In this document: piece by piece, positions 1 to 11,627 of the stretch
Layout of the letters: each line of letters begins with the position of its first letter
Numbering within the stretch: the first letter of the stretch is position 1
From: a virus
Taxonomy: Duplodnaviria > Heunggongvirae > Uroviricota > Caudoviricetes
IMG/VR virus record: IMGVR_UViG_2531839179_000018
Coordinates: 1-11,627 of that record
Strand: one strand, 5' to 3'
Length of the DNA stretch: 11,627 bases
Program-made: the position numbers and the translations under genes
The notes under the pieces: model-generated
Told to the model about the DNA's origin: nothing
The model's input: the letters and a program-made list of their open reading frames with translations, nothing else
The model's database searches: none

Positions 1-163
1 CACAACATCCGAGGACAGCATCGTCCGCCAGCCTACAGAAGTCCGGAAAGCCATGGAAGGTCGTTGGGAGGAGGTACGAATTCTATCATGCAAAAAATAC
101 GTAAAATCGATAACGCCTAGAAATCATTCAATACTCGCACTATCGAAAGTTTACCAGCCAACC

Positions 164-192
164 GCGGCACGTTCCTGCATACGACGTGCCGC
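164..192. other. Perfect 9-bp inverted repeat (gcggcacgt / acgtgccgc) with an 11-nt loop, just beyond the stop of the last tail gene
   Basis: Read directly from sequence: 164-172 is the reverse complement of 184-192. No clear U-run follows on either strand, so the terminator role is uncertain. Confidence 0.35.
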
Positions 193-200
193 AGCTTCTG

Positions 201-824
201 TTATTCCACGATAAAATTCCTAACCGAATTCAAATCCTTCAGACTATTCAGCTCTTCCTTCAGCTCCCGCTGACGGCGATAAATCTCGTCATTGCGCTCA
301 ACCTGTGCCTGAGCCATTGCTGCCGCCAGTTCTTCCAGTTCCGGCATCGACAGTTTCACCTGCTGATTATCGGCATCACCCCACGTCATCACGTCCCGTA
401 CAATGTCGGATTTCGCAGCCATTACCACCGGATAAAGGCGGCCCAGTGAGTTGGGGCCAGCATTCCAGATACGACCGTTCCATTCAAACGTGAACGGCTT
501 CGCCTCCTGTTCTGTGCGCCATGCTTCAATTCCCTGACGTCTGGCCTCTCTGGCCGCTTCCAGCATTTCTGGTGTCACAGTGAATGGGGCTATCTCACCC
601 CATTTGCCGCTTTGCAGTTCCTGCCAGATTTGCTGACCCGTCGAAGCGACATCATCAGCGGTGGCTGTGTAGGGGACTGCCTGGTCCCTGTCGTCAAAAA
701 AAACGTCACAGTCTACTGCGCCACTTTCGGTATAACGGGGATTAATGATTTTTTTAATTTCCACGGTGCATTCCTCACGATGTGCGAATAAAAAGCCCGG
801 GCATTGCGCCAGAGACATGTGCAT
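201..824 (-). CDS. Tail-fibre-associated protein, putative fibre assembly chaperone (weak call)
   Basis: 207-aa ORF directly downstream of the Stf-like fibre gene, the position usually held by a Tfa/chaperone. No motif I can name with certainty. It overlaps the fibre gene by 50 nt; a GTG at 762-764 just after the fibre stop is a plausible true start. Confidence 0.45.
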   Translation of the reverse strand: MHMSLAQCPGFLFAHREECTVEIKKIINPRYTESGAVDCDVFFDDRDQAVPYTATADDVASTGQQIWQELQSGKWGEIAPFTVTPEMLEAAREARRQGIEAWRTEQEAKPFTFEWNGRIWNAGPNSLGRLYPVVMAAKSDIVRDVMTWGDADNQQVKLSMPELEELAAAMAQAQVERNDEIYRRQRELKEELNSLKDLNSVRNFIVE

Positions 825-2043
825 CCGGCACCCCGGACAGGGCGCAATATGACCCCGGTAATGAATGCTCTGAACATCCCGTAATGAAAAATTGTGGGGA
901 TGCTATATACGTTCCGGTGGGAGTACTGGTCACTGAAATCCCCACCGGTCCCAGTCGTGAGCCTCTGTATGACCGCCCCCTGACAAGTCTGATGACTTTA
1001 TCACCGTCAGCTTCTCCCTGGTACGCAGCAATAATCAGCCCGCCAATGTCAGGGTCTCCCCATCTGTTGCGGACAGAGCTCGCCACGATTCTGTAAATAA
1101 TATCTTCTGTGGTTATATTTATTTTCACCCAGCCAGTCAGTCTGGATATGGGCCAGTAGCAGTAGCGGGTGTGATAAATGGGGCCGTTAATGCCGTAAAA
1201 AGTAAGGGATTTGGCTCTGTACCTCGGTTCTGTTGTCTCAGGGCGTGCATCAGTCCACCGGATGCTGAGCACCCCTTCAAACCGTGTGTCAGGTATGATG
1301 ATGTCGTAGGGGCCAGCAACGGAATATTCACCTGGCAGCGCATTCCTTACCCAGGCCAGGAAATCACTCTTAGTGTCAAAACGGATAACATCTTCAGGCA
1401 GAAAAGCACGCCCAAAGCCGAATGCGCCGGGTATCGCCAGACGGCCTTTTGTCCGGTCGTAAATGTCGCTCTGTGCTTCCATCGTGGCTGCACTTTTCAG
1501 CCCCAGATTATCCCGGGACTTCTGTTGTGCCTTTTCGCCTGCTGCTGCGATTTCAGACAGATGGTTAGCCGTTTTCAGAGTGCCGGTCAGCGCAGCATCA
1601 ATGTCATTTTTGGCCTGTTCTGCTGCGCGGGCATAACCTGCGGCTGCCGCCACATCCTGCGCCGTCTGCTGTGCGTTTCCGGCTGCGGCCCCGGCGCTCT
1701 GCTGCGCCTGCGCCACCATTTCCTCAAAGCGTTTGACGACATCCGGTTTCAGGTCGCCCTCATCAGGAGCAATCAGAAAGTCATTCAGCGTGCCGGGCTT
1801 TGAGTCCTCATATACAGCAATGTCGCCAACGTTGTACTCGTTGCGCCAGTCCTGTTTCAGATACACACCATATTTTCCAGTCCGCGCATGGAAACAGTAT
1901 TCACCATCGTTTCCTGTCATCACATCAGCAACAGTGTGCATAACCACTTCCGGGGTGTTTACCCGGGATTTCAGAATAATATGGTATCCGGACATGGGGA
2001 TACCTGCGCCATCAGTCAGCGCACCTGATATCACTACAGACAT
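775..2043 (-). CDS. Side tail fibre protein with lambda-Stf-type N-terminal domain
   Basis: 422-aa ORF. The N-terminus (MSVVISGALTDGAGIP...VYEDSKPGTLNDFL) matches the conserved prophage tail-fibre N-terminal domain pattern of lambda Stf, followed by an Ala/Gln-rich coiled-coil-like stretch. The C-terminal ~100 aa are compositionally odd. Confidence 0.7.
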   Translation of the reverse strand: MSVVISGALTDGAGIPMSGYHIILKSRVNTPEVVMHTVADVMTGNDGEYCFHARTGKYGVYLKQDWRNEYNVGDIAVYEDSKPGTLNDFLIAPDEGDLKPDVVKRFEEMVAQAQQSAGAAAGNAQQTAQDVAAAAGYARAAEQAKNDIDAALTGTLKTANHLSEIAAAGEKAQQKSRDNLGLKSAATMEAQSDIYDRTKGRLAIPGAFGFGRAFLPEDVIRFDTKSDFLAWVRNALPGEYSVAGPYDIIIPDTRFEGVLSIRWTDARPETTEPRYRAKSLTFYGINGPIYHTRYCYWPISRLTGWVKINITTEDIIYRIVASSVRNRWGDPDIGGLIIAAYQGEADGDKVIRLVRGRSYRGSRLGPVGISVTSTPTGTYIASPQFFITGCSEHSLPGSYCALSGVPDAHVSGAMPGLFIRTS

Positions 2044-2066
2044 TGTTTTTCTCGCGATAAATTAAA

Positions 2067-2612
2067 TCAGGAAGAACCTTCCGGAGAGACGGGCCATTCA
2101 ATGGCGTTGTATGAGGATTTATCAGTGATGGCGCTGAAATCCATCGCCTGCAGTGATTTCGCGTAAATACGACAGGCTTTCAGCTTTTCTTTATCTTCGT
2201 CGCTGATTAACCCCAGCAGCAGGTCTTCTTCCCATTCCCCTGTCCGGGCACTGACCTGAGCCAGAAGGGCATCACGCTCATCTTCCGCTTTGAGTCTGTA
2301 GTCAAAGACAAATTCATCATTGCGGTAAAACCAGTAACCCGGCGCGGTAATCCGTCGGTTAGCGGTAATATCAGGAACTTCAATAACACTGGCATTGCGT
2401 GGCTCGATGCCTGTCACATCCTTACCGACCCACACCACACGACCGTCTCCGGTGTAAGCTATTTTTATTGTGTCGCTGGCGAAATTCTTCAGCTCTTCAT
2501 ACCAGTTTTTTCCGTCTTCTGAAAAAAGCCAGGTGACCGAATATCGTTTTGTCATCTGATATTGTTCTGCTGTTTTCGGATTACCCGCAGTAATATTTTT
2601 TAAATGCAACAT
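2067..2612 (-). CDS. Tail fibre assembly chaperone (P2 gpG / Mu U family)
   Basis: 181-aa ORF. N-terminus MLHLKNITAGNPKTAEQYQMTK...SEDGKNWYEELKNF closely resembles P2 gpG, and the C-terminus ends in the typical IEWPxxP motif. It starts 2 nt after the fibre stop. Confidence 0.8.
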   Translation of the reverse strand: MLHLKNITAGNPKTAEQYQMTKRYSVTWLFSEDGKNWYEELKNFASDTIKIAYTGDGRVVWVGKDVTGIEPRNASVIEVPDITANRRITAPGYWFYRNDEFVFDYRLKAEDERDALLAQVSARTGEWEEDLLLGLISDEDKEKLKACRIYAKSLQAMDFSAITDKSSYNAIEWPVSPEGSS

Positions 2613-2614
2613 TG

Positions 2615-3817
2615 TTAAATACTCGCTACGTTATACCAGGTGCCATTAATCAGTTTTTGCAGTGGTCGGTAATACACACCGTCAACGTTATCCGCTGAGT
2701 TACGGCCGGTATCCGATATCGCCATCCCTGACAGCCCGTGTCCCGAAGGTGCGCAAAATCTCCACGAAACGGTGTTACTGCCGGGGCTGTAATACATTTC
2801 ATGGCCATACCGTACATCCTGTACCCCCTCTGTTCGATATTTATAGCGGGCATCGAAGTTTCCGTAATTTAACGGAATTACCTGTCCGTTAACAGTGAAC
2901 ACTATGCTGTTATCCGGGTTTCTCTGGCTGAAAAAATGCCAGCCTGAATCATCACCAAGCTCTGCAACAACAGGCCTGGATGGATTACCCCACAAACAAA
3001 ACGCTGCATTTTTCGTGGAGTTGTTGGCGCTGGATAACGTGAATTTTCTGGCAGTTCCGGCCTGAATATTCTTAAAAGCAATAGCCACGCCATTCTGAAA
3101 ACGAAATACATGCTGTCCATTCGCATAAACATCCAGCAGACCATCGCCATTTTGTTTAAACCCGGTATCGTTATCTCCTAAAACGATTGAACTTCCACCT
3201 AACGCATTCGTCGTACCAATGCCAAGGCAACCATTAATGACGGCATTAACCAGAATATTTAGTGTATCCCATTTGAGATTCATCAGGTCTTTAACCCGGC
3301 CGCCAGCGAGGCGGTGTCTCCATTTGAAATATTCATTACCGTTATCCGCCGTTTCAAACCACATGTAGGAATCGGTGTCTGCATCCGAATCATTTTTAAA
3401 TCCAATCTTCGCCCAGTCAGTATTCCGAATCCAGGCGAGGATTGAGTCGTTTTCAAAAGTAAGTCCACCGGACAAGGTATCGCCTTCCTGATGAACATAG
3501 CGTTGATCTGACTGCTCTTTACTGTAAACCTGAAGATTATCCCGTGCCGTCCCTTTATTCTGAAGGTCTGACAGATTGTTCTTCTGCCGCAGGAATATCC
3601 TTTTCGGATCCTCAAGAAGATTTACCCAGCCCGCACTGTCGGAGCCTTCAGGATCGGTCAGGTTATCGTCTGTGGTATTCAGCCAGACCGCTGTTGTTGC
3701 GACTCCGGCGAGAATGGCTCCTTTTGCATATCCACCAATGGCCCCCGCAAAACCGGCATTATACGTGTACAAACCGCCAGCCTGGGCGAACCGTATTGCT
3801 GCGGTAATATCGTACAT
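2615..3817 (-). CDS. Tail fibre protein, major C-terminal portion (P2 gpH / Mu S-like); 3' segment of a gene interrupted at a G10 tract
   Basis: 400-aa ORF containing the conserved fibre C-terminal block ([32 protein letters not shown]...[10 protein letters not shown]). Its frame stays open upstream of the ATG through the homopolymer to a stop at 3872-3874. Confidence 0.8.
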
Positions 3818-3824
3818 CAGACCG

Positions 3825-4016
3825 TTAAAATCCTTGCCGTGTGGCGGTCCCCCCCCCCGCTGAGACCGCTGTCATGGTCGTCGGAGGAAAACCTGAATCA
3901 TACGCAGCATTACCGCTCTCTCTGGTCTGCTGTGTCGCCTTGTCCGGGATACGGTTTTTATCTCCGGTACTCGCAAAGGGGACCGCCAGCTGGCGGGGTT
4001 TATCACTGGCCTTCAT
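3825..4016 (-). CDS. Tail fibre protein, N-terminal segment (5' part of the interrupted fibre gene)
   Basis: 63-aa ORF with a strong Shine-Dalgarno (AAGGAG, 7-nt spacing) before its ATG. It reads through the G10 tract as Gly-Gly-Gly and terminates 8 codons later, in a different frame from the 400-aa ORF. Confidence 0.6.
3849..3858. repeat. Homopolymeric tract, C10 on the plus strand (G10 in the coding sense) inside the tail fibre gene
   Basis: Counted directly from sequence. It lies exactly at the frame change between ORF 3825-4016 and ORF 2615-3817. Confidence 0.95.
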
Positions 4017-4608
4017 TACGGGACTCCTTTAAAACTACTGAAACATAAACACCCGGCGGGGACGGCAGTGCACCCGACGACTGGATAATCGCCAGTTCTG
4101 CCGACGAGAGCGCGGACTCAAAGACGTAACTCATCCTCAGCCCGCCATTATTCAGAACATAAGCCCGGCGTTTTTTTCCGAACATAAACCTCAGCATCCG
4201 GTTAATATCCGGAACGGAACAGTCAGTAATATTCGACATGGCTTTCATCAGGATCAGTCGCCGGTATATGGCATCAGTCAGGTCAACAGTCCGGGTAACC
4301 GATTTTCCGTTGTAAAACGGTGCCTGATTAAACGGGCGGGAATCATCCATTACCGGGGTGTCCATCCTGGACTCGCTGAAGCCCAGGTAATTAAAATCGT
4401 CCTTTACCGTCAGCCGGCGACTGACACCCACAATCTTTCCCCAGACATCAAGACCATACTTTTCTGCGGTATCGATGTTCCAGATAAGACCATAAAAATC
4501 ACTGATAAAACTGTCGGGGGAAAGCGCTGCGTTAAAGCTGTTAATGAGGGCATTGAGTCGGGAGCTGGCAGCATACTGCGCAAGCACAGTGGCAGCCACA
4601 TTCTGCAC
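4003..4608 (-). CDS. Baseplate/tail protein in the gpI / Mu gp48 position
   Basis: 201-aa ORF between the J-like gene and the fibre gene. The call rests on synteny with P2 (V-W-J-I-H-G) and Mu (gp45-gp48, S, U); I cannot confirm the sequence family by eye. Confidence 0.45.
4024..4028 (-). promoter_or_regulatory. Shine-Dalgarno sequence for the tail fibre gene start at 4016
   Basis: The minus-strand mRNA reads AAAGGAGUCCCGUA-AUG, giving an AGGAG core 7 nt upstream of the ATG. Confidence 0.6.
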
Positions 4609-4609
4609 G

Positions 4610-5392
4610 TTATGCCTCCTGGAGTTTCACACTGATATCCGACACATCCAGAACCGGAATCTCATCTATCCCGAAAGTGACAGCCGTTGTCCATGACGAA
4701 CCGTCACGGCTCACAGTAAGGCCCAGAATATCAATATGTTCCGGATCGGTTTTGTAAATGCCGGCATAGTAGCGCCCGGCAGAGACAACAGAGGCAACTC
4801 TTGCCCGCAGACCACCATCTGTACCATTAAATGCGTCCAGCACGGATTGCTGTACCTGTCGGGTAATATCTGAAGGCAGGTAGTCACTTTTTTTCAGCGT
4901 CACACTGACATGCAGACTGACGGGTTTGAGTGTCTGCCAGCTGATCACGTATTCAGGATACGGCGGATCGTACTCCTTATCTGCAACAGTGAACGTTGTG
5001 TTGCCATTCATATCAATACCCGGCGGAGCCTTACGCCAGATGGCCGCCGCGATATCTGCCGGGCTGCCGCCGTACACGCCAACATAAAGCGAACCGGGTG
5101 TTAATGGATACTGACTGACTCCGGCTTTTTGTTCTGTTTTTTTCGGATTATGGGTGACGTAAACATCCACCACGTTTTCTACCGTGGAGAGTATTTCACC
5201 CCGGATGGCTTCCAGAATATTCCGGGCATTACGGGCAACTGAATTACGTCGGCGGTTTTCAAAGTCCGCACGGGTTTCCTCATCGCTGCCCGGCACACCG
5301 GCACGGGCGTTAGTGACACCTGACCAGCCAGGTATTGCCTTATAAATTTTATTCAGCGTCCCCACAGGACAGCCGACGGGGCCGGTGGACAA
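4610..5392 (-). CDS. Baseplate J-like protein, C-terminal portion (3' segment of an apparently frameshifted gene)
   Basis: 260-aa ORF that begins at TTG with no Shine-Dalgarno. Its frame is open a further ~20 codons upstream and overlaps the end of ORF 5395-5847; the two ORFs together (~410 aa) match baseplate-J size and position. Confidence 0.6.
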   Translation of the reverse strand: MSTGPVGCPVGTLNKIYKAIPGWSGVTNARAGVPGSDEETRADFENRRRNSVARNARNILEAIRGEILSTVENVVDVYVTHNPKKTEQKAGVSQYPLTPGSLYVGVYGGSPADIAAAIWRKAPPGIDMNGNTTFTVADKEYDPPYPEYVISWQTLKPVSLHVSVTLKKSDYLPSDITRQVQQSVLDAFNGTDGGLRARVASVVSAGRYYAGIYKTDPEHIDILGLTVSRDGSSWTTAVTFGIDEIPVLDVSDISVKLQEA

Positions 5393-5394
5393 AT

Positions 5395-5847
5395 TCAGAA
5401 ATACCGCATCAACCTGCCCTGATGCGCCGATAGTGACGTCTGACTGACATACTTATAACCGGCCTCATCCTGCGCCATACTGCTCGCCGGGATCAGCGTG
5501 CCAACCAGCCCGGTACAGGTCGCTGTTACTGTCGTACCTGTGGCCCCACGGCGCTCCAGGAAATAAATCCTGCCTATTGCATCCTGAAAGCGACCACTGA
5601 AAAAGTCAGGGTTGATCTGGTTAACGATATACAGCAACTGATCGTTTTTATCCGCAATAATGGCGCTTTCGCTGGATGCAAGTTGTCCCTGCGGACTGCT
5701 CAGACTGGTACTCATGGCCCCGCCCAGCGCCGCCGAAAAATCAGCAAGCCTGCCGCTCAGAATATCCGCTTCATCCGGCACATTCAGCCCGCTATCCGAA
5801 ATCTGTACAGCGGGCACTGCGGTAGAAAAAGATTTATTTTCACTCAT
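5395..5847 (-). CDS. Baseplate J-like protein, N-terminal portion (5' segment of an apparently frameshifted gene)
   Basis: 150-aa ORF whose start overlaps the upstream gene by 4 nt. It stops at TGA (5395-5397), 2 nt before the downstream ORF's first codon, which is in another frame. Confidence 0.6.
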   Translation of the reverse strand: MSENKSFSTAVPAVQISDSGLNVPDEADILSGRLADFSAALGGAMSTSLSSPQGQLASSESAIIADKNDQLLYIVNQINPDFFSGRFQDAIGRIYFLERRGATGTTVTATCTGLVGTLIPASSMAQDEAGYKYVSQTSLSAHQGRLMRYF

Positions 5848-6200
5848 AGCAGTACCGTAAAAATGTCATTATTGGTATCTGTAATACGCAGCACACCTGT
5901 TACTGTCCGGGTTTGATCAGTTGTGACCTGGCAGACAGCGGCGCTCACGGTCGGCAGTTTAAGTGCTTCCTGTTGCAGAGTGGCATTCACCAGTTGTGTG
6001 CCGGGCCAGTGTCCGAGGATGCGTGGCCAGTAAGGTATGCCAGCCGTTGAGTCGTACCAGCACTCCCCCAGAAAAGTACTGCACGCACACGCCACATCCT
6101 GAGCTACCGCATGGGGATTATCAGTAATGGCAAGATTTCCGGTATCATCAAGCAGGATATCCCATGTCCCGGTGTCAAGAAGAAGTGATCGTGACTGCAT
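5844..6200 (-). CDS. Small baseplate protein in the Mu gp46 / P2 gpW position
   Basis: 118-aa ORF between the spike and J-like genes. The call is by synteny and size only. Confidence 0.45.
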   Translation of the reverse strand: MQSRSLLLDTGTWDILLDDTGNLAITDNPHAVAQDVACACSTFLGECWYDSTAGIPYWPRILGHWPGTQLVNATLQQEALKLPTVSAAVCQVTTDQTRTVTGVLRITDTNNDIFTVLL

Positions 6201-6212
6201 GTTTTCTCCTGT

Positions 6213-6890
6213 TTACCGGGGTCCCTGCGTGGTTGAGCCGCCGGACTCAACGCCGCCGTGAACGTGGTTTCCAAAATCAATACCCCCGATGTTCGAACCG
6301 CCGGAAAGCCTGGACTGCCCGGTAACGTTAAGCCCCTTACTGACGGCGGTATCGCCGTTCAGCGCAATTTGTGGTGAGTTAACGGTGAAGCTTTTCGGCG
6401 CATTAATCACACCCTCAGGCGCGGATATCTCCACTTTCCAGGGAGATACAATCCGTATCTGGTTGTCATCAAATACCACAAACTGGACGGGATCACCGTT
6501 GAGCACGCCACCCAGCCAGATGGCATCAGCATAATTATGGGTACGCTTTGATCCCGGCATCGCAGCCTGACGCGTGGCTTTTACCGCACTGATATCCCGA
6601 TCGCAGATGGCAAGAAAACCGATATCCCCCACATGTGGCGGCATAATCACCGCATTACCGCCCCCCTGTAGTCGCCATACGGGAATGTTATAAATCACCT
6701 CATGTTCAACCGGGGAACCGTCTGCTGCAACGCCCATTACCATCGGTCGGGCCTCAATAAATCCCTCTTCCACGGCTACCACCCGTCCCAGAGTGATAAA
6801 CGCATGACGTCCGAGAAACTGCCGCAGCATAAAGTCCTGTGCATTGATTTCGCTGTTCACGTCTGTCGGGTTACTGAGTGGTTGTGCCAT
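6213..6890 (-). CDS. Baseplate central spike protein (P2 gpV / Mu gp45-like)
   Basis: 225-aa ORF of the right size and position for a spike protein, with a Gly-rich C-terminus carrying an HxH motif (GIDFGNHVHGGVESGG), as seen in spike apex domains. A Met at residue 21 is an alternative start lying after the upstream stop. Confidence 0.65.
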   Translation of the reverse strand: MAQPLSNPTDVNSEINAQDFMLRQFLGRHAFITLGRVVAVEEGFIEARPMVMGVAADGSPVEHEVIYNIPVWRLQGGGNAVIMPPHVGDIGFLAICDRDISAVKATRQAAMPGSKRTHNYADAIWLGGVLNGDPVQFVVFDDNQIRIVSPWKVEISAPEGVINAPKSFTVNSPQIALNGDTAVSKGLNVTGQSRLSGGSNIGGIDFGNHVHGGVESGGSTTQGPR

Positions 6891-7740
6891 TTTCTTCAGC
6901 CCTCATCATGGTACAGTTGGAACTCCACGGACCGCCCACGGTTCGCGAAGTAATGGTGTGTATCACCCCTGTGATCGTATAATCGCCCGTCATATCAGGC
7001 AGTGACGATTCCAGATGCGCTGGCCTGCCAGTAAAGAGATCGGGGCAGAATATCGTGGTGGCGCTGAGTCCGGTCATGGTGTAAACCGGATAGCCAGTCA
7101 GTCCGTGATCCGGCGAAATCAGTACCGGCGGAATATTCCGGTTCTGCCCTTTCGGCCAGATGGTGACTTTCTCCACATTCCCCAGATCAATGTTAATATC
7201 GGCGGCTGAAGCGACATCCAGCATTTGTTGTACAACATTACCGGAAAAATGCGGGTCAGACAGACTGCGGCTGACCCCCTGGTTTTCAAATCCAAGCCCG
7301 ACAGTTGACGCCAGCGCACGGATAATATCTGCAACCGCAACATCGCCCTTTGCGCTGAAATCTGCCGCCGGCTGATTACGCAGATTAAAATGAATCTGTC
7401 CTGTCAGAATGAGCGGAATATCCGGCGCCTGGTTGTAGTCGGCGTATGCATCAGTAATATCACCTTCAAAAATAAGCCGCCCGTCGGCCCACAGCCGCAT
7501 TTTATTTGCGGTACTCTGCTCCTGTCGCCACACACCGCGCCAGCTTAAATTCGTCATATGCGCCGGTGACATTCCCCAGATATACAGCGTGATTTGTGTA
7601 CCAGCCACCCCTCCATATACGGCAATACTGGCAAAACAGCTTGCGTCGGTAATGGTCAGCATATTGCCCTGGCCATTACCAAACGTTCGTCCGTCTGAAA
7701 GAGTGAACTCCACCGTTATTTTACGTTGTCTGTAGCTCAT
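6871..7740 (-). CDS. Tail/baseplate protein, possibly hub-like (Mu gp44 position)
   Basis: 289-aa ORF immediately upstream of the spike gene, with a start that overlaps the stop of the upstream fragment. Function is inferred from position only. Confidence 0.4.
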
Positions 7741-7959
7741 ATCAGTTCCTCAGGTAACAGCCAGTAGAGCCGGTACCGGGATCCGAGCCCCCGCCAGTCA
7801 GGGTCACTATTCCCCTCCGTGTCGGTAAAAAACAGGTCCCCCTGAAACGGCAGGTATCCGTACCGGACAATCCGGTTATTATTCAGACACAGCACGCCAT
7901 ACAGGCACGGTTCACCATTAACAATGATATCGATATACATCCCCGTAGTACGCTGATTC
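7737..7959 (-). pseudogene. 3' remnant (~74 codons) of a phage tail gene truncated by the IS66-family insertion
   Basis: The reading frame is open from the IS66 end at 7960 down to the stop at 7737-7739, and is translationally coupled to the next gene. The 5' part of the gene is replaced by IS sequence. Confidence 0.45.
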
Positions 7960-8897
7960 GTAAGCGCCCCGAGAAGTACGTAGCGTAAGGATTATTTTAC
8001 AGACGAGAAGTTCCAGGGAAGCAGTTCATGCACTTGGTTCGACGGCCAGTCATTGAGCTTCTCGATCACTTCGCGCAACCAGTCCTCCGGCTCCACTTCG
8101 TTCTGTTTGCAGGTGACCAGCAGACTGTAGATGATCGCCGCACTTTCTCCTCCCTTGTCTGAACCGAAAAAGAGATAATTTTTTCTTCCAACCGCCACCG
8201 ATCGTAACGCGTTTTCACCGATGTTGTTGTCTATTTCCACCCAGCCGTCACGACAGAACTCGTTCAGCGCATTCCAGTGATTCAGGATATAGTCGAACGC
8301 CTTCGCCATCTCCGCATGTTTCGACAGCGTTTTCCTCTGCAACTGTATCCAGTCGTACAACGACTGCATCAACTGGACGCTTCTGGCTTTTCTGACTGCA
8401 AGCCGTTCCTCTGCCGGACTGCCACGTATCTCCGCTTCTATATCGTATAACTCTGCTATCCGTCTGAGCGCTTCCTGAGTCATTTCTGTCGGACGGCGCA
8501 CATCCTCGTCATGGATTTTTCGGCGGGCGTGGGCCAGGCACCCGGCTTCCTTCACCCGGCCCGCTTCGTACAGTACGTTATAACCTGCATAGGCATCAGC
8601 CTGCAGTACGCCCTGATACTTTGCCAGGTGGAGCTGCGGATGTTCTCCTTTGCGATCTGCCGAATACGCGAACCAGACGGCTGCCGGCAGGGATGAACCC
8701 GCATTACGATCATCCCTGACGTATACCCACAGACGACCCGTTTTCGTCTTTCCGTTCCCCGGGGCCAGTACTTTCACCGGAGTGTCATCTGCGTGCACCT
8801 TTCCTGCCTCCAGAACATAGTCATTCAGCGCTATATACAGAGGACGGAGTTTGTCTGCCATTTCTGATACCCAGCGCACCATGGTATTACGGCTCAG
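7960..8897 (-). mobile_element. IS66-family insertion sequence, truncated: terminal repeat end plus the 3' part of tnpC
   Basis: The end begins with GTAAGCG at 7960, typical of IS66-family terminal repeats, and carries the tnpC C-terminal ORF. The element is cut at 8897/8898 by the IS3-family end. Confidence 0.7.
7992..8882 (-). pseudogene. IS66-family transposase TnpC, C-terminal fragment (N-terminal ~220 aa missing)
   Basis: 296-aa ORF carrying the C-terminal catalytic region of IS66 TnpC-type transposases (DDTPVKVL...QADAYAGY...HARRK). Full-length TnpC is about 520 aa. Confidence 0.8.
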
Positions 8898-9224
8898 TGA
8901 GGTAGCCTGAGTTTAACGGACACTCCTTCCTGAAATAGAATGGCATCAGAAGGAGCTAATAATGAGCAGAAAAACCCAACGTTACTCTAAAGAGTTCAAA
9001 GCCGAAGCTGTCAGAACGGTTCTTGAAAATCAACTTTCGATCAGTGAAGGCGCTTCCCGATTATCCCTTCCTGAAGGCACTTTAGGACAATGGGTTACCG
9101 CCGCCAGAAAAGGGCTCGGTACTCCTGGTTCCCGCACGGTGGCTGAACTGGAATCTGAAATTCTGCAACTGCGTAAGGCGTTAAATGAAGCTCGCCTTGA
9201 GCGAGATATATTAAAAAAAGCAAC
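8898..9224 (+). mobile_element. IS3-family element (IS600-like), 5' end only: left terminal repeat plus orfA up to the frameshift window
   Basis: The left end TGAGGTAGCCTGAGTTTAACGG resembles the IS911 left end. OrfA begins at 8962 with a Shine-Dalgarno, and the element is cut at 9224 by IS30. Confidence 0.7.
8962..9224 (+). pseudogene. IS3-family OrfA (IS600-like), truncated after ...DILKKAT by IS30
   Basis: Translation MSRKTQRYSKEFKAEAVRTVLENQLSISEGASRLS... has an HTH and leucine-zipper-like OrfA architecture. The six-frame ORF (8962-9330) runs artificially into the IS30 terminal repeat. Confidence 0.75.
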
Positions 9225-10445
9225 TGTAGATTCAATTGGTCAACGCAACAGTTATGTGAAAACATGGGGTTGCGGAGGTTTTTTGAATGAGACGAACATT
9301 TACAGCAGAGGAAAAAGCCTCTGTTTTTGAACTATGGAAGAACGGAACAGGCTTCAGTGAAATAGCGAATATCCTGGGTTCAAAACCCGGAACGATCTTC
9401 ACTATGTTAAGGGATACTGGCGGCATAAAACCCCATGAGCGTAAGCGGGCTGTAGCTCACCTGACACTGTCTGAGCGCGAGGAGATACGAGCTGGTTTGT
9501 CAGCCAAAATGAGCATTCGTGCGATAGCTACTGCGCTGAATCGCAGTCCTTCGACGATCTCACGTGAAGTTCAGCGTAATCGGGGCAGACGCTATTACAA
9601 AGCTGTTGATGCTAATAACCGAGCCAACAGAATGGCGAAAAGGCCAAAACCGTGCTTACTGGATCAAAATTTACCATTGCGAAAGCTTGTTCTGGAAAAG
9701 CTGGAGATGAAATGGTCTCCAGAGCAAATATCAGGATGGTTAAGGCGAACAAAACCACGTCAAAAAACGCTGCGAATATCACCTGAGACAATTTATAAAA
9801 CGCTGTACTTTCGTAGCCGTGAAGCGCTACACCACCTGAATATACAGCATCTGCGACGGTCGCATAGCCTTCGCCATGGCAGGCGTCATACCCGCAAAGG
9901 CGAAAGAGGTACGATTAACATAGTGAACGGAACACCAATTCACGAACGTTCCCGAAATATCGATAACAGACGCTCTCTGGGGCATTGGGAGGGCGATTTA
10001 GTCTCAGGTACAAAAAACTCTCATATAGCCACACTTGTAGACCGAAAATCACGTTATACGATCATCCTTAGACTCAGGGGCAAAGATTCTGTCTCAGTAA
10101 ATCAGGCTCTTACCGACAAATTCCTGAGTTTACCGTCAGAACTCAGAAAATCACTGACATGGGACAGAGGAATGGAACTGGCCAGACATCTAGAATTTAC
10201 TGTCAGCACCGGCGTTAAAGTTTACTTCTGCGATCCTCAGAGTCCTTGGCAGCGGGGAACAAATGAGAACACAAATGGGCTAATTCGGCAGTACTTTCCT
10301 AAAAAGACATGTCTTGCCCAATATACTCAACATGAACTAGATCTGGTTGCTGCTCAGCTAAACAACAGACCGAGAAAGACACTGAAGTTCAAAACACCGA
10401 AAGAGATAATTGAAAGGGGTGTTGCATTGACAGATTGAATCTACA
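9225..10445 (+). mobile_element. IS30, complete (1221 bp) with 26-bp imperfect terminal inverted repeats
   Basis: Left repeat 9225-9250 (tgtagattcaattggtcaacgcaaca) and right repeat 10420-10445 (reverse complement tgtagattcaatctgtcaatgcaaca) match at 23 of 26 positions. Length and single-transposase organisation match IS30. Confidence 0.9.
9287..10438 (+). CDS. insI: IS30 transposase (383 aa), intact
   Basis: Full-length ORF with an N-terminal HTH region and a DDE-type catalytic core; its stop lies inside the right terminal repeat. Confidence 0.9.
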
Positions 10446-10708
10446 GTAGCCTTTTTTAATATTTCATTCTCCATTTCAATGCGTTGTAGCTTTTTCCTCA
10501 GCTTACGTATTTCGATTTGTTCTGGTGTTATCGGAGAGGCTTTTGGTGTTTTGCCCTGACGCTCATCACGCAGTTGTTTGACCCATCTTGTCATTGTGGA
10601 AAGGCCAACATCCATAGCTTTGGCGGCATCTGCCACCGTGTATTTCTGGTCAACAACCAGTTGAGCGGATTCGCGTTTAAACTCTGCGCTAAAATTTCTT
10701 TTTTTCAT
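10446..10708 (-). pseudogene. insN: IS911 OrfA, truncated after ...EILKKAT by IS30
   Basis: Translation [51 protein letters not shown]... is the IS911 OrfA N-terminus as I recall it. The six-frame ORF (10358-10744) is a chimera that adds upstream codons and reads into IS30. Confidence 0.8.
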
Positions 10709-10780
10709 TGGAGCACCTGTGTTGTTCTGAGGTGAGCATATCACCTCTGTTCAGGTGGCCAAATTCAGTGTGCCACTTCA
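10446..10780 (-). mobile_element. IS911 (IS3 family), 5' end only, inverted relative to the IS600-like fragment
   Basis: On the minus strand the element begins TGAAGTGGCACACTGAATTTGGCCACC at 10780 and OrfA starts at 10708. It is cut at 10446 by the IS30 right end. Confidence 0.8.
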
Positions 10781-11627
10781 TATCTTAAACTACCGGAATG
10801 AACTGCTGCATGGAGAAACGCTTTACCTAGATAATCCAAGATCCAACAAAAAAGGAAGAACCGTGCGCACAGTTGATAACTATATCGCCCTGCTCTGTTC
10901 GTTGTTACGTTTTGCGTATCAGTCGGGATTTATATCAACCAAACCATTTGAAGGAGTAAAAAAATTACAGCGAAACAGAATAAAGCCTGACCCGTTATCT
11001 AAAACAGAATTCAATGCATTAATGGAAAGTGAAAAAGGACAGAGCCAAAACTTGTGGAAATTTGCCGTTTACTCCGGGCTTCGTCACGGGGAACTGGCAG
11101 CTCTGGCGTGGGAGGATGTGGATTTCGAGAAGGGAATTGTGAATGTCAGAAGAAACCTGACGATACTTGATATGTTCGGTCCCCCAAAAACAAATGCCGG
11201 GATCCGGACGGTAACATTACTGCAGCCGGCTCTTGAAGCACTGAAGGAGCAATACAAACTGACCGGGCATCATCGCAAAAGCGAAATCACTTTTTATCAT
11301 CGGGAGTACGGCAGAACTGAAAAGCAAAAACTGCATTTTGTTTTCATGCCCAGGGTGTGTAACGAAAAACAGAAACCTTATTACTCGGTAAGCAGTTTGG
11401 GTGCAAGATGGAATGCAGCAGTAAAACGTGCTGGTATTCGCCGCCGTAATCCGTACCATACGCGACATACTTTTGCCTGCTGGCTGTTGACGGCAGGAGC
11501 GAACCCGGCATTTATAGCCAGCCAGATGGGGCATGAAACTGCGCAAATGGTGTATGAAATTTACGGTATGTGGATTGATGACATGAACGACGAACAGATA
11601 GCCATGTTGAATGCGCGGTTATCGTAG
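10781..11627 (+). pseudogene. Tyrosine recombinase (phage integrase), 5'-truncated; C-terminal catalytic domain present
   Basis: C-terminus carries catalytic-domain motifs (HTRHTFA...MGHETAQMVYEIY with the tyrosine nucleophile). The N-terminal domains are absent; sequence upstream of 10781 is the IS911 end, and the ORF's apparent start (GTG at 10755) lies inside it. Confidence 0.8.

Follow-up and report, generated by a model that had tools for sequence, protein, structure and literature searches.

The block of insertion sequences (ISs) at positions 7960–10780 of the window, i.e. the whole 11,627-nucleotide stretch of DNA analyzed here, is probably (at roughly 70%) the scar of a deletion that ISs brought about in several steps within one prophage located at the ttcA (Rac) site and carrying sitABCD at its far end. 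Since the tail module and the integrase gene intR are collinear and 35.8 to 38.5 kb apart in intact genomes, the block marks an internal deletion of approximately 35.8 kb. The window was identical to contig AFFZ01000026.1 of Shigella dysenteriae 155-74 (100% over 11,627 bases; strain name according to PMC4374849), where it constitutes the entire remnant from the first base behind the sitD stop codon to the stop codon of intR. On this contig sitABCD is located to the left and ttcA-dbpA-zntB-dgcM-smrA to the right.

Four genomes listed in RefSeq as E. coli (CFSAN029787, VL46, RMDEC364 and RMDEC332) carried the tail module and intR on one strand within one prophage between sitD and ttcA. The spacing between both ranged from 35.8 kb to 38.5 kb (strain RMDEC332), and VL46 and RMDEC364 were spaced as CFSAN029787. 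In the latter strain the tail module (4675880–4683673) and intR (4719454–4720300) are orientated into the same direction, and the interval is occupied by contiguous tail, head, terminase, lysis, replication, immunity, recE/gam and xisR genes. Both flanks of the window were collinear with the intact prophage copies, and compared to these about 35.8 kb are missing between the plug gene and nt 389 of intR. This comparison with relatives supports the claim of the first-pass annotation that the block is a rearrangement scar.

The left flank consists of the distal part of the prophage (1–7736, minus strand) with genes for hub, spike, sheath initiator, baseplate J, wedge, tail fibres and tail-fibre assembly. 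It starts right after the sitD stop codon and is 97.8% identical to CFSAN029787 4675880–4683673. Gene labels were taken from the CFSAN029787 annotation and from the Pfam labels of identical genes in the loci L006 (CP027027.1) and L023 (AFFZ01000026.1). The baseplate J gene and one tail-fibre gene are frameshifted in the remnant. The adjacent gene (7737–7959, minus strand) represents the last 223 nt of a baseplate-plug gene of the Pam3_gp18 family with a full length of 303 nt; as had been claimed for it before, the 5' part is missing, with 80 nt lost at the ISSfl3 end. Position 7959 aligns to position 15674 of locus L004, within the coding sequence 15452–15754, and an intact plug protein of 100 amino acids was present in the loci L019, L024 and L025.

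The right flank (10781–11627, plus strand) contains the 3' 847 of the 1236 nt of intR, the integrase gene of the ttcA-site (Rac-site) prophage, and is 100% identical to intR of CFSAN029787. The fragment retained the catalytic domain, while the N-terminal 130 codons are gone, and the window ends with its stop codon. The ttcA gene is located 51 bp past this stop codon in the loci L007, L023 and L029, an arrangement also present in CFSAN029787.

Head and lysis genes had been presumed lost from the sequence alone. The intact copies confirmed this, and in total the genes for tail tube, sheath, tape-measure, neck, head, terminase and lysis were removed. The loss extends past them to the entire early region, to xis and to nt 1–389 of int. 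No capacity for excision or for the formation of particles was found: xis, the full int gene and the head, lysis and replication genes are all part of the lost 35.8 kb. Without xis and with a truncated int the remnant is unable to excise, and sitABCD is therefore fixed in place. The prophage is a dead remnant. We read the locus as a single dead ttcA-site prophage remnant and not as a join of unrelated elements; this is of importance mainly for annotation and explains why sitABCD is fixed beside ttcA in this Shigella lineage.

The assignment of 7960–10780 to four ISs, three of them truncated, was correct to the base. It was checked by blastn of the window against reference copies of the elements, which were built from retrieved loci. 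The first element (7960–8897, minus strand) comprises nt 1817–2754 of the 2754-bp ISSfl3 of the IS66 family with 99.6% identity. Its reference was obtained from locus L002, where an 8-bp duplication (GACTTCCC) flanks the element. The natural right terminus GTAAGCG is located at 7960. The ORF 7992–8882 corresponds to the 296 C-terminal codons of tnpC, and its product matched NF033517 (transpos_IS66) with E = 1.8e-93 at profile positions 125–386 only. Terminus and TnpC thus place the element in the family; it is a fragment that has lost its left end together with tnpA and tnpB.

The second element (8898–9224, plus strand) corresponds to nt 1–327 of IS600 of the IS3 family with 100% identity to a 1264-bp reference, which was rebuilt from locus L006 with terminal inverted repeats present. 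It starts with the natural left end TGAGGTAGCC at 8898 and still has its left inverted repeat, and orfA (start at 8962) is preserved in its 5' part up to a cut right behind the A-rich frameshift motif, so that 26% of the element is left. The ORF was recognized by NCBIfam as the N-terminus of an IS3-family protein.

The third element (9225–10445, plus strand) is a complete IS30 of 1221 bp, as identified by blastn. The transposase ORF (9287–10438, 383 amino acids) is intact and matched NF033563 (transpos_IS30, E = 3e-82), the terminal inverted repeats match at 23 of 26 positions, and a single synonymous difference distinguishes the element from the K-12 copy, with an identical transposase protein. 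It is flanked by AC and GT and thus has no 2-bp target duplication; this is due to a later rearrangement and is no evidence against membership in IS30.

The fourth element (10446–10780, minus strand) represents nt 1–335 of the approximately 1249-bp IS911 of the IS3 family with 100% identity. The reference was the RefSeq-annotated copy of E. coli O121 (locus L008), which is flanked by a 3-bp duplication (GAA). The natural left terminus is located at 10780, and the 27% of the element that are left comprise the left inverted repeat and the beginning of orfA (ATG at 10708). Its cut site is homologous to that of IS600.

Blastn found nothing else of the four elements in the window, which bears out the earlier statement that the fragments are without partner ends. 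The elements go by the same names in the RefSeq annotation of the E. coli records that match, and the ORFs were assigned by NCBIfam to transposases of the IS66, IS3 and IS30 families. With identities of 99.6–100% chance matches are no issue.

Two complete genomes, CP026824.1 (L005) and CP027027.1 (L006), carried the prophage/ISSfl3/IS600 junctions of the window with sheath and head genes retained. Locus L006 is 99.985% identical to window positions 3853–10340. Here, IS600 is complete and contains a simple IS30 insertion with a 2-bp duplication (AC); its right end abuts the sheath gene at the position corresponding to L004 19707, and past this point neck and head genes follow. The scar did not originate from one event: both loci preserve an earlier state with a deletion of only about 4 kb. 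The description of the cluster as nested in the first-pass annotation applies in part. IS30 is truly inserted into IS600 as seen in the relatives, but at the other joins deletions have left an end directly against the interior of a neighbouring sequence.

In addition, CP027027.1 carried at least three complete IS911 copies with an IS30 inside (IS911::IS30), in which the junction between IS911 nt 335 and the right end of IS30 is identical to that of the window. IS30 has an AC duplication in these compounds, and one compound is itself flanked by a 3-bp duplication (TTA). The IS600 part of the window was 100% identical to IS600 copies of CP027027.1 (L006, L016), as was the IS911 part to IS911 of E. 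coli O121 (L008) and to copies of CP027027.1 (L015–L018). IS600::IS30 and IS911::IS30 compounds, with IS30 just after the frameshift motif of orfA, are both widespread in E. coli (match classes 328–1883 and 1–1548). Their internal junctions are the two IS30 junctions of the window; in the window, however, one half of each compound is joined via a single IS30 without the 2-bp duplication. The presence of IS911::IS30 compounds in CP027027.1 indicates that the final step was most likely the fusion of two direct IS30 copies.

The following order of events is proposed. ISSfl3 would first have inserted into the baseplate-plug gene. Subsequently, IS600 would have become placed with the sheath gene on one side and the interior of ISSfl3 on the other, with the loss of about 4 kb of tail genes and of the left two thirds of ISSfl3. 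The state presumably reached by then, IS600 with a simple IS30 insertion and its AC duplication, survives in CP026824.1 and CP027027.1. In the lineage of 155-74 and 1012 an IS911 in intR may then have carried an IS30 in the same orientation at the homologous position of orfA. We infer this third step, because no genome was found that carries IS911 or IS911::IS30 at this site of intR together with the 5' part of the gene: there was none among 5,426 E. coli genomes, and look-ups of the truncated integrase products of 290 and 201 amino acids returned only contigs of the window type, near-intact intR, or IS600 elsewhere in intR (AFGE01000031.1). The two direct IS30 copies, one in IS600 and one in the IS911 of intR, would finally have fused into one, either by RecA-dependent homologous recombination or by IS30 end-joining (site-specific dimerisation) followed by dimer dissolution. 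The fusion would have removed the 3' part of IS600, the remaining prophage (about 31.7 kb), the 5' part of intR and the 3' part of IS911, leaving the product IS600'-IS30-'IS911 without target duplication. SNPs that reveal a crossover were not found within IS30.

The same deletion could have been generated by IS30 transposition, if the IS30 within IS600 attacked a preferred target, an uninterrupted IS911 in intR, on the same molecule. IS30 has a hot-spot target specificity, and intramolecular targeting of hot spots gives deletions (PMC9333248); furthermore, IS30 had previously used exactly this site in IS911 as well as the homologous site in IS600, and the product lacks a target duplication as predicted by this route. 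However, the route needs a second independent insertion at exactly nt 335 of IS911 in matching orientation, whereas a ready-made IS911::IS30 with that junction is present in multiple copies in a close relative. Moreover, no uninterrupted IS911 was found at this site of intR, neither in the 5,426 E. coli genomes nor in the truncated-integrase look-ups. We therefore consider this route unlikely, and prefer the fusion of two direct IS30 copies.

A chimera of the same architecture and with the same breakpoints (IS600 nt 1–327, complete IS30, IS911 nt 335–1) is present in the fec/nanXY region (KpLE2) of E. coli K-12 (locus L001, 5001–6882). It is 99.6% identical to the window over 1883 bp with 7 sequence differences; its flanks, however, are an ISEc52 fragment and the fragment of an MFS transporter gene, compared to ISSfl3' and intR' in the window. 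The window might accordingly have acquired an old, pre-formed 1883-bp unit by recombination or by transposition from its outward-facing IS3-family left ends. The unit is indeed bounded by two natural left ends of the IS3 family in inverted orientation, and K-12 and related strains share the architecture with 99.6–99.7% identity between different flanks. Against this, the loci L005 and L006 share the left junctions of the window and yet have an intact IS600::IS30, and the chimera therefore postdates those junctions. Furthermore, the block is flanked by CAG and TAT and thus without target duplication, and it differs from K-12 at 7 sites but matches by 100% the IS600 copies of CP027027.1 and the IS911 copies of CP027027.1 and O121. 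A pre-formed unit is therefore rejected as highly improbable. Based on the state in L005 and L006 the chimera of the window was formed locally, and the two chimeras originated in parallel instead of being inherited as one block; the one of K-12 apparently arose separately.

These data lead us to a broader suggestion, tentative and with slightly less than even odds: IS30 repeatedly inserts just downstream of the orfA frameshift signal of IS3-family elements (IS600, IS911) and disables their transposase, the compounds are still mobilised as units by intact copies, and the scattered IS30 homology predisposes to large deletions. If true, repeated targeting by IS30 would explain the independent IS600'-IS30-'IS911 chimeras in E. 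coli K-12 and S. dysenteriae. ISs riding within other ISs, such as IS600::IS30 and IS911::IS30, supply repeats for large deletions, and look-alike chimeras in unrelated lineages can mislead analyses based on synteny or IS typing.

An assembly artefact would require that an assembler crossed the multi-copy 1.2-kb IS30 and misjoined the IS600::IS30 of the prophage to an IS911::IS30 in intR. The window is derived from a draft contig, a collapse of IS30 repeats would yield exactly such a join, and both types of compounds are present in relatives. Additionally, both assemblies that span the IS30 bridge (155-74 and 1012) are drafts, and the deletion was read from the contigs of the locus. The searches in complete genomes were negative: among 5,426 complete E. 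coli genomes there was neither a plug/ISSfl3 nor an IS911/intR junction and no record with at least 80% of 7600–11627, and an exact-pattern scan of a species-representative genome collection for the IS911/intR junction gave 0 matches. Against an artefact, contig AAMJ02000020.1 of S. dysenteriae 1012 contains window positions 8330–11627 followed by ttcA, and this chain of junctions thus recurs in another strain, which differs in serotype and was sequenced at another centre. The IS911/intR junction was also found in a Logan contig, and the same type of chimera is present in complete-genome RefSeq records of E. coli K-12. A misassembly of repeats, which the first-pass annotation had considered as a refutation of the scar, is largely answered, as four of the five junctions were found again in a second strain of a separate sequencing project and the fifth in two complete genomes. 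We regard an artefact as very improbable.

The first-pass annotation had further proposed that the rearrangement placed an integrase fragment of an unrelated element beside the tail module, a reading favoured by the heavily rearranged genomes of Shigella (PMC7373316) and made from a window in which no intact reference is visible; it is refuted, since the fragment is the intR of the same prophage, still next to ttcA and collinear with the tail module in four genomes, and since sitABCD and ttcA keep their ancestral order and orientation in AFFZ01000026.1.

The locus is a routine case of the IS-driven genome decay typical of Shigella, a phenomenon already known. IS-mediated deletions between homologous copies were described as typical of this genus (Hawkey et al. 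2020, PMC7373316), and nothing essential differs here, besides that the window is a prophage instance in which the mediating repeat, IS30, is a passenger in two other ISs. IS30 is able to join the ends of distant copies and to generate deletions; direct copies can be fused by the transposase with loss of the intervening DNA (Olasz et al. 2022, PMC9333248). These pathways, as well as deletions by hot-spot targeting, were demonstrated on plasmids and engineered chromosomes, whereas the pathway proposed for the window is deduced from its end product only. The Rac prophage of E. coli K-12, a defective lambdoid prophage at ttcA, occupies the same integration site, and intR and xisR are shared by the intact relatives of the window prophage. 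It is likewise a decayed remnant but decayed by a different route. In contrast to Rac, the Pfam labels of the window prophage indicate a structural module with an E217-like contractile tail, and sitABCD is located at the distal end of this prophage.

Sequence reading and comparison with complete E. coli genomes revealed five sharp junctions between positions 7700 and 11000 of the window. The limits of the elements were determined by blastn of the window against full-length reference copies assembled from fetched loci. These were: ISSfl3 with 2754 bp, bounded by an 8-bp duplication (locus L002), IS600 with 1264 bp, rebuilt from CP027027.1 (locus L006), IS911 with ~ 1249 bp and a 3-bp duplication (E. 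coli O121, locus L008) and the K-12 copy of IS30. The block consists of ISSfl3 nt 2754-1817 at 7960-8897 (99.6% identity), IS600 nt 1-327 at 8898-9224 (100%), a complete IS30 (nt 1-1221) at 9225-10445 with one synonymous difference to K-12, and IS911 nt 335-1 at 10446-10780 (100%). The four elements and their coordinates had thus been recognized exactly by the first-pass annotation, and the family assignments agree with NCBIfam. Blastn found no further pieces of these elements elsewhere in the window. Each junction connects a natural IS terminus with interior sequence. IS30 encodes an intact transposase and has no 2-bp duplication around it, its flanks being AC and GT.

The IS600 and IS911 OrfA starts run into the IS30 ends as hybrid ORFs of 122 aa (8962-9330, plus strand) and 116 aa (10358-10708, minus strand), respectively, which retain the helix-turn-helix part only. 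Thousands of public assemblies contain an annotated copy of the 116-aa ORF, which starts with IS911 orfA and continues into the right end of IS30.

Contig AFFZ01000026.1 (GCA_000211935.2, locus L023), identified through its baseplate-hub protein, matches the window at 100% over all 11,627 bases. AFFZ01000000 has been listed as Shigella dysenteriae 155-74, serotype 2 (PMC4374849). The window reaches exactly from the first base after sitD to the integrase stop codon, with sitABCD on the left and ttcA-dbpA-zntB-dgcM-smrA on the right.

Window 10781-11627 matches the last 847 nt (3' part) of the intR gene of E. coli CFSAN029787 at 100% identity; the gene order there is xisR, intR, ttcA. The counterpart of the tail module in this genome (97.8% identity) lies on the same strand as intR and 35.8 kb away, and the interval is one collinear prophage. 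It comprises plug, baseplate, tape-measure, tube, sheath, neck, head, portal and terminase genes as well as lysis genes, tRNAs, replication and immunity genes, recE/gam and xisR. The spacing is the same in VL46 and RMDEC364 and amounts to 38.5 kb in RMDEC332. The earlier interpretation as a rearrangement scar in a prophage is partly supported; the view that the integrase fragment is unrelated is wrong, since intR is the prophage's own. Window position 7959 corresponds to position 15674 of L004, a locus with the plug and sheath genes, and lies within the 303-nt plug gene; position 10781 corresponds to intR nt 390. The IS block therefore replaces ~ 35.8 kb interior to a single prophage. Since order and orientation of both chromosomal flanks are still ancestral, a deletion is indicated rather than an inversion.

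The sitABCD iron/manganese transporter operon is located at the distal end of the ttcA-site prophage, with uspF on one side and the tail-fibre genes on the other (AFFZ01000026.1 and L004), and is now locked in place because xis and int are lost. In AFGE01000031.1 a complete IS600 (locus L030, 832-2095) is located at a different site of intR, 40 nt into the gene; the integrase of this prophage has therefore been the target of at least two independent IS insertions.

The truncated ISSfl3 ORF was also present in two complete genomes, CP026824.1 and CP027027.1. The latter matches window 3853-10340 with 99.985% identity (L006) and therefore shares the plug-ISSfl3, ISSfl3-IS600 and IS600-IS30 junctions. 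Here, IS600 is complete, and the IS30 inside it is a simple insertion with the duplication AC. The sheath gene adjoins the IS600 right end 170 nt from its own 3' end, followed by neck and head genes. Judged from these alignments, the earlier state lacked only ~ 4.0 kb (L004 15675-19706) and the left two thirds of ISSfl3. Later gains of both genomes are an IS110-family element of 1449 bp, placed at window position 3853, and a ~ 0.9-kb IS inside IS30, resulting in three levels of IS nesting. This smaller IS (L006 7629-8542 and the CP026824.1 equivalent) is located at window-equivalent 10340, with a DDE_Tnp_1-type transposase and a CTAG-like duplication.

Three complete 2.47-kb compounds of IS911 with an inserted IS30 were found at different loci of CP027027.1 (L016-L018), structured as IS911 nt 1-335, IS30 and IS911 nt 334-1249. 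The L016 compound is bounded by the 3-bp duplication TTA, so that the IS30-disabled IS911 still moved as a unit. Furthermore, IS600 with an inserted IS30 was present at at least two loci of CP027027.1, and both combinations occur frequently among E. coli genomes (hit classes 1-1548 and 328-1883). IS30 follows nt 327 in IS600 and nt 335 in IS911. These positions are homologous and both come directly after the A-rich frameshift motif of orfA, but the two insertions have opposite orientations. The insertion points are 9224/9225 and 10445/10446 in the window, 9658 and 7520 in L006, and 6263 and 7484 in L016-L018. IS3-family elements thus seem to contain a target preferred by IS30.

The simplest explanation of the scar is a route from an L006-type state via fusion of two IS30 copies. 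An IS911-IS30 compound would have been located in intR, its IS30 oriented like the one in IS600, and fusion would then have reduced both copies to one, deleting the 3' part of IS600, ~ 31.7 kb of prophage, the 5' part of intR and the 3' part of IS911. The fusion may have been RecA-dependent or due to IS30 itself, which can connect the ends of two copies, also over long distances, and subsequently resolve the resulting dimer (PMC9333248). Since neither the E. coli genome junction search nor the integrase look-ups yielded a genome with IS911 in intR and the intR 5' part still attached, we infer the step of IS911 into intR. A weaker alternative to the fusion is a transposase-driven IS30 deletion into the hot spot of an uninterrupted IS911. 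Misassembly by collapse of the IS30 repeat is very improbable: such a collapse in the draft source assembly would give exactly this join, but S. dysenteriae 1012, of another serotype and sequencing centre, carries window 8330-11627 in one contig continuing into ttcA, the IS911-intR junction recurs in a separate read-set assembly, and the three left junctions are present in two complete genomes.

Two of the tail genes are frameshifted. At 3849-3858, where intact relatives have ATACCTCCC, the window shows a C10 run (G10 in the coding direction); the additional base shifts the frame of the tail-fibre gene, leaving split ORFs at 3825-4016 and 2615-3817 (minus strand). The 1449-bp IS110-family element of CP026824.1 and CP027027.1 lies within this run (G6, IS, G5), which may be the target of the element, its footprint or a slippage-prone tract. 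The baseplate J/gp47 gene (4610-5847, minus strand) carries a frameshift near 5392-5397, which splits it into a 150-aa and a 260-aa ORF, compared with 413 aa in CFSAN029787 and loci L019, L024 and L025. The same split was found in L006, L020-L023 and L026-L028 and is therefore older than the IS scar. Within the tail-fibre gene, 201 nt (2888-3088) have no counterpart in CFSAN029787 (33 nt there), and to the left identity falls from 98.7% to 96.3%; such mosaicism is usual for tail-fibre genes.

The fec/nanXY region of E. coli K-12 shows the same architecture of truncated IS600, IS30 and truncated IS911 with 99.6% identity, whereas its flanks differ from those of the window and its block differs at 7 sites. 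At 100% identity, the IS600 half of the window matches the IS600 copies of CP027027.1; the IS911 half likewise matches the copies of IS911 in both CP027027.1 and E. coli O121. Because of these matches and differences, and because the L006-type intermediate already has the left junctions of the window, the two chimeras are parallel; one inherited block common to both was rejected on the same grounds. What the IS block represents is an ordinary scar of an IS-mediated deletion within a dead prophage, fully consistent with known Shigella genome decay (PMC7373316).
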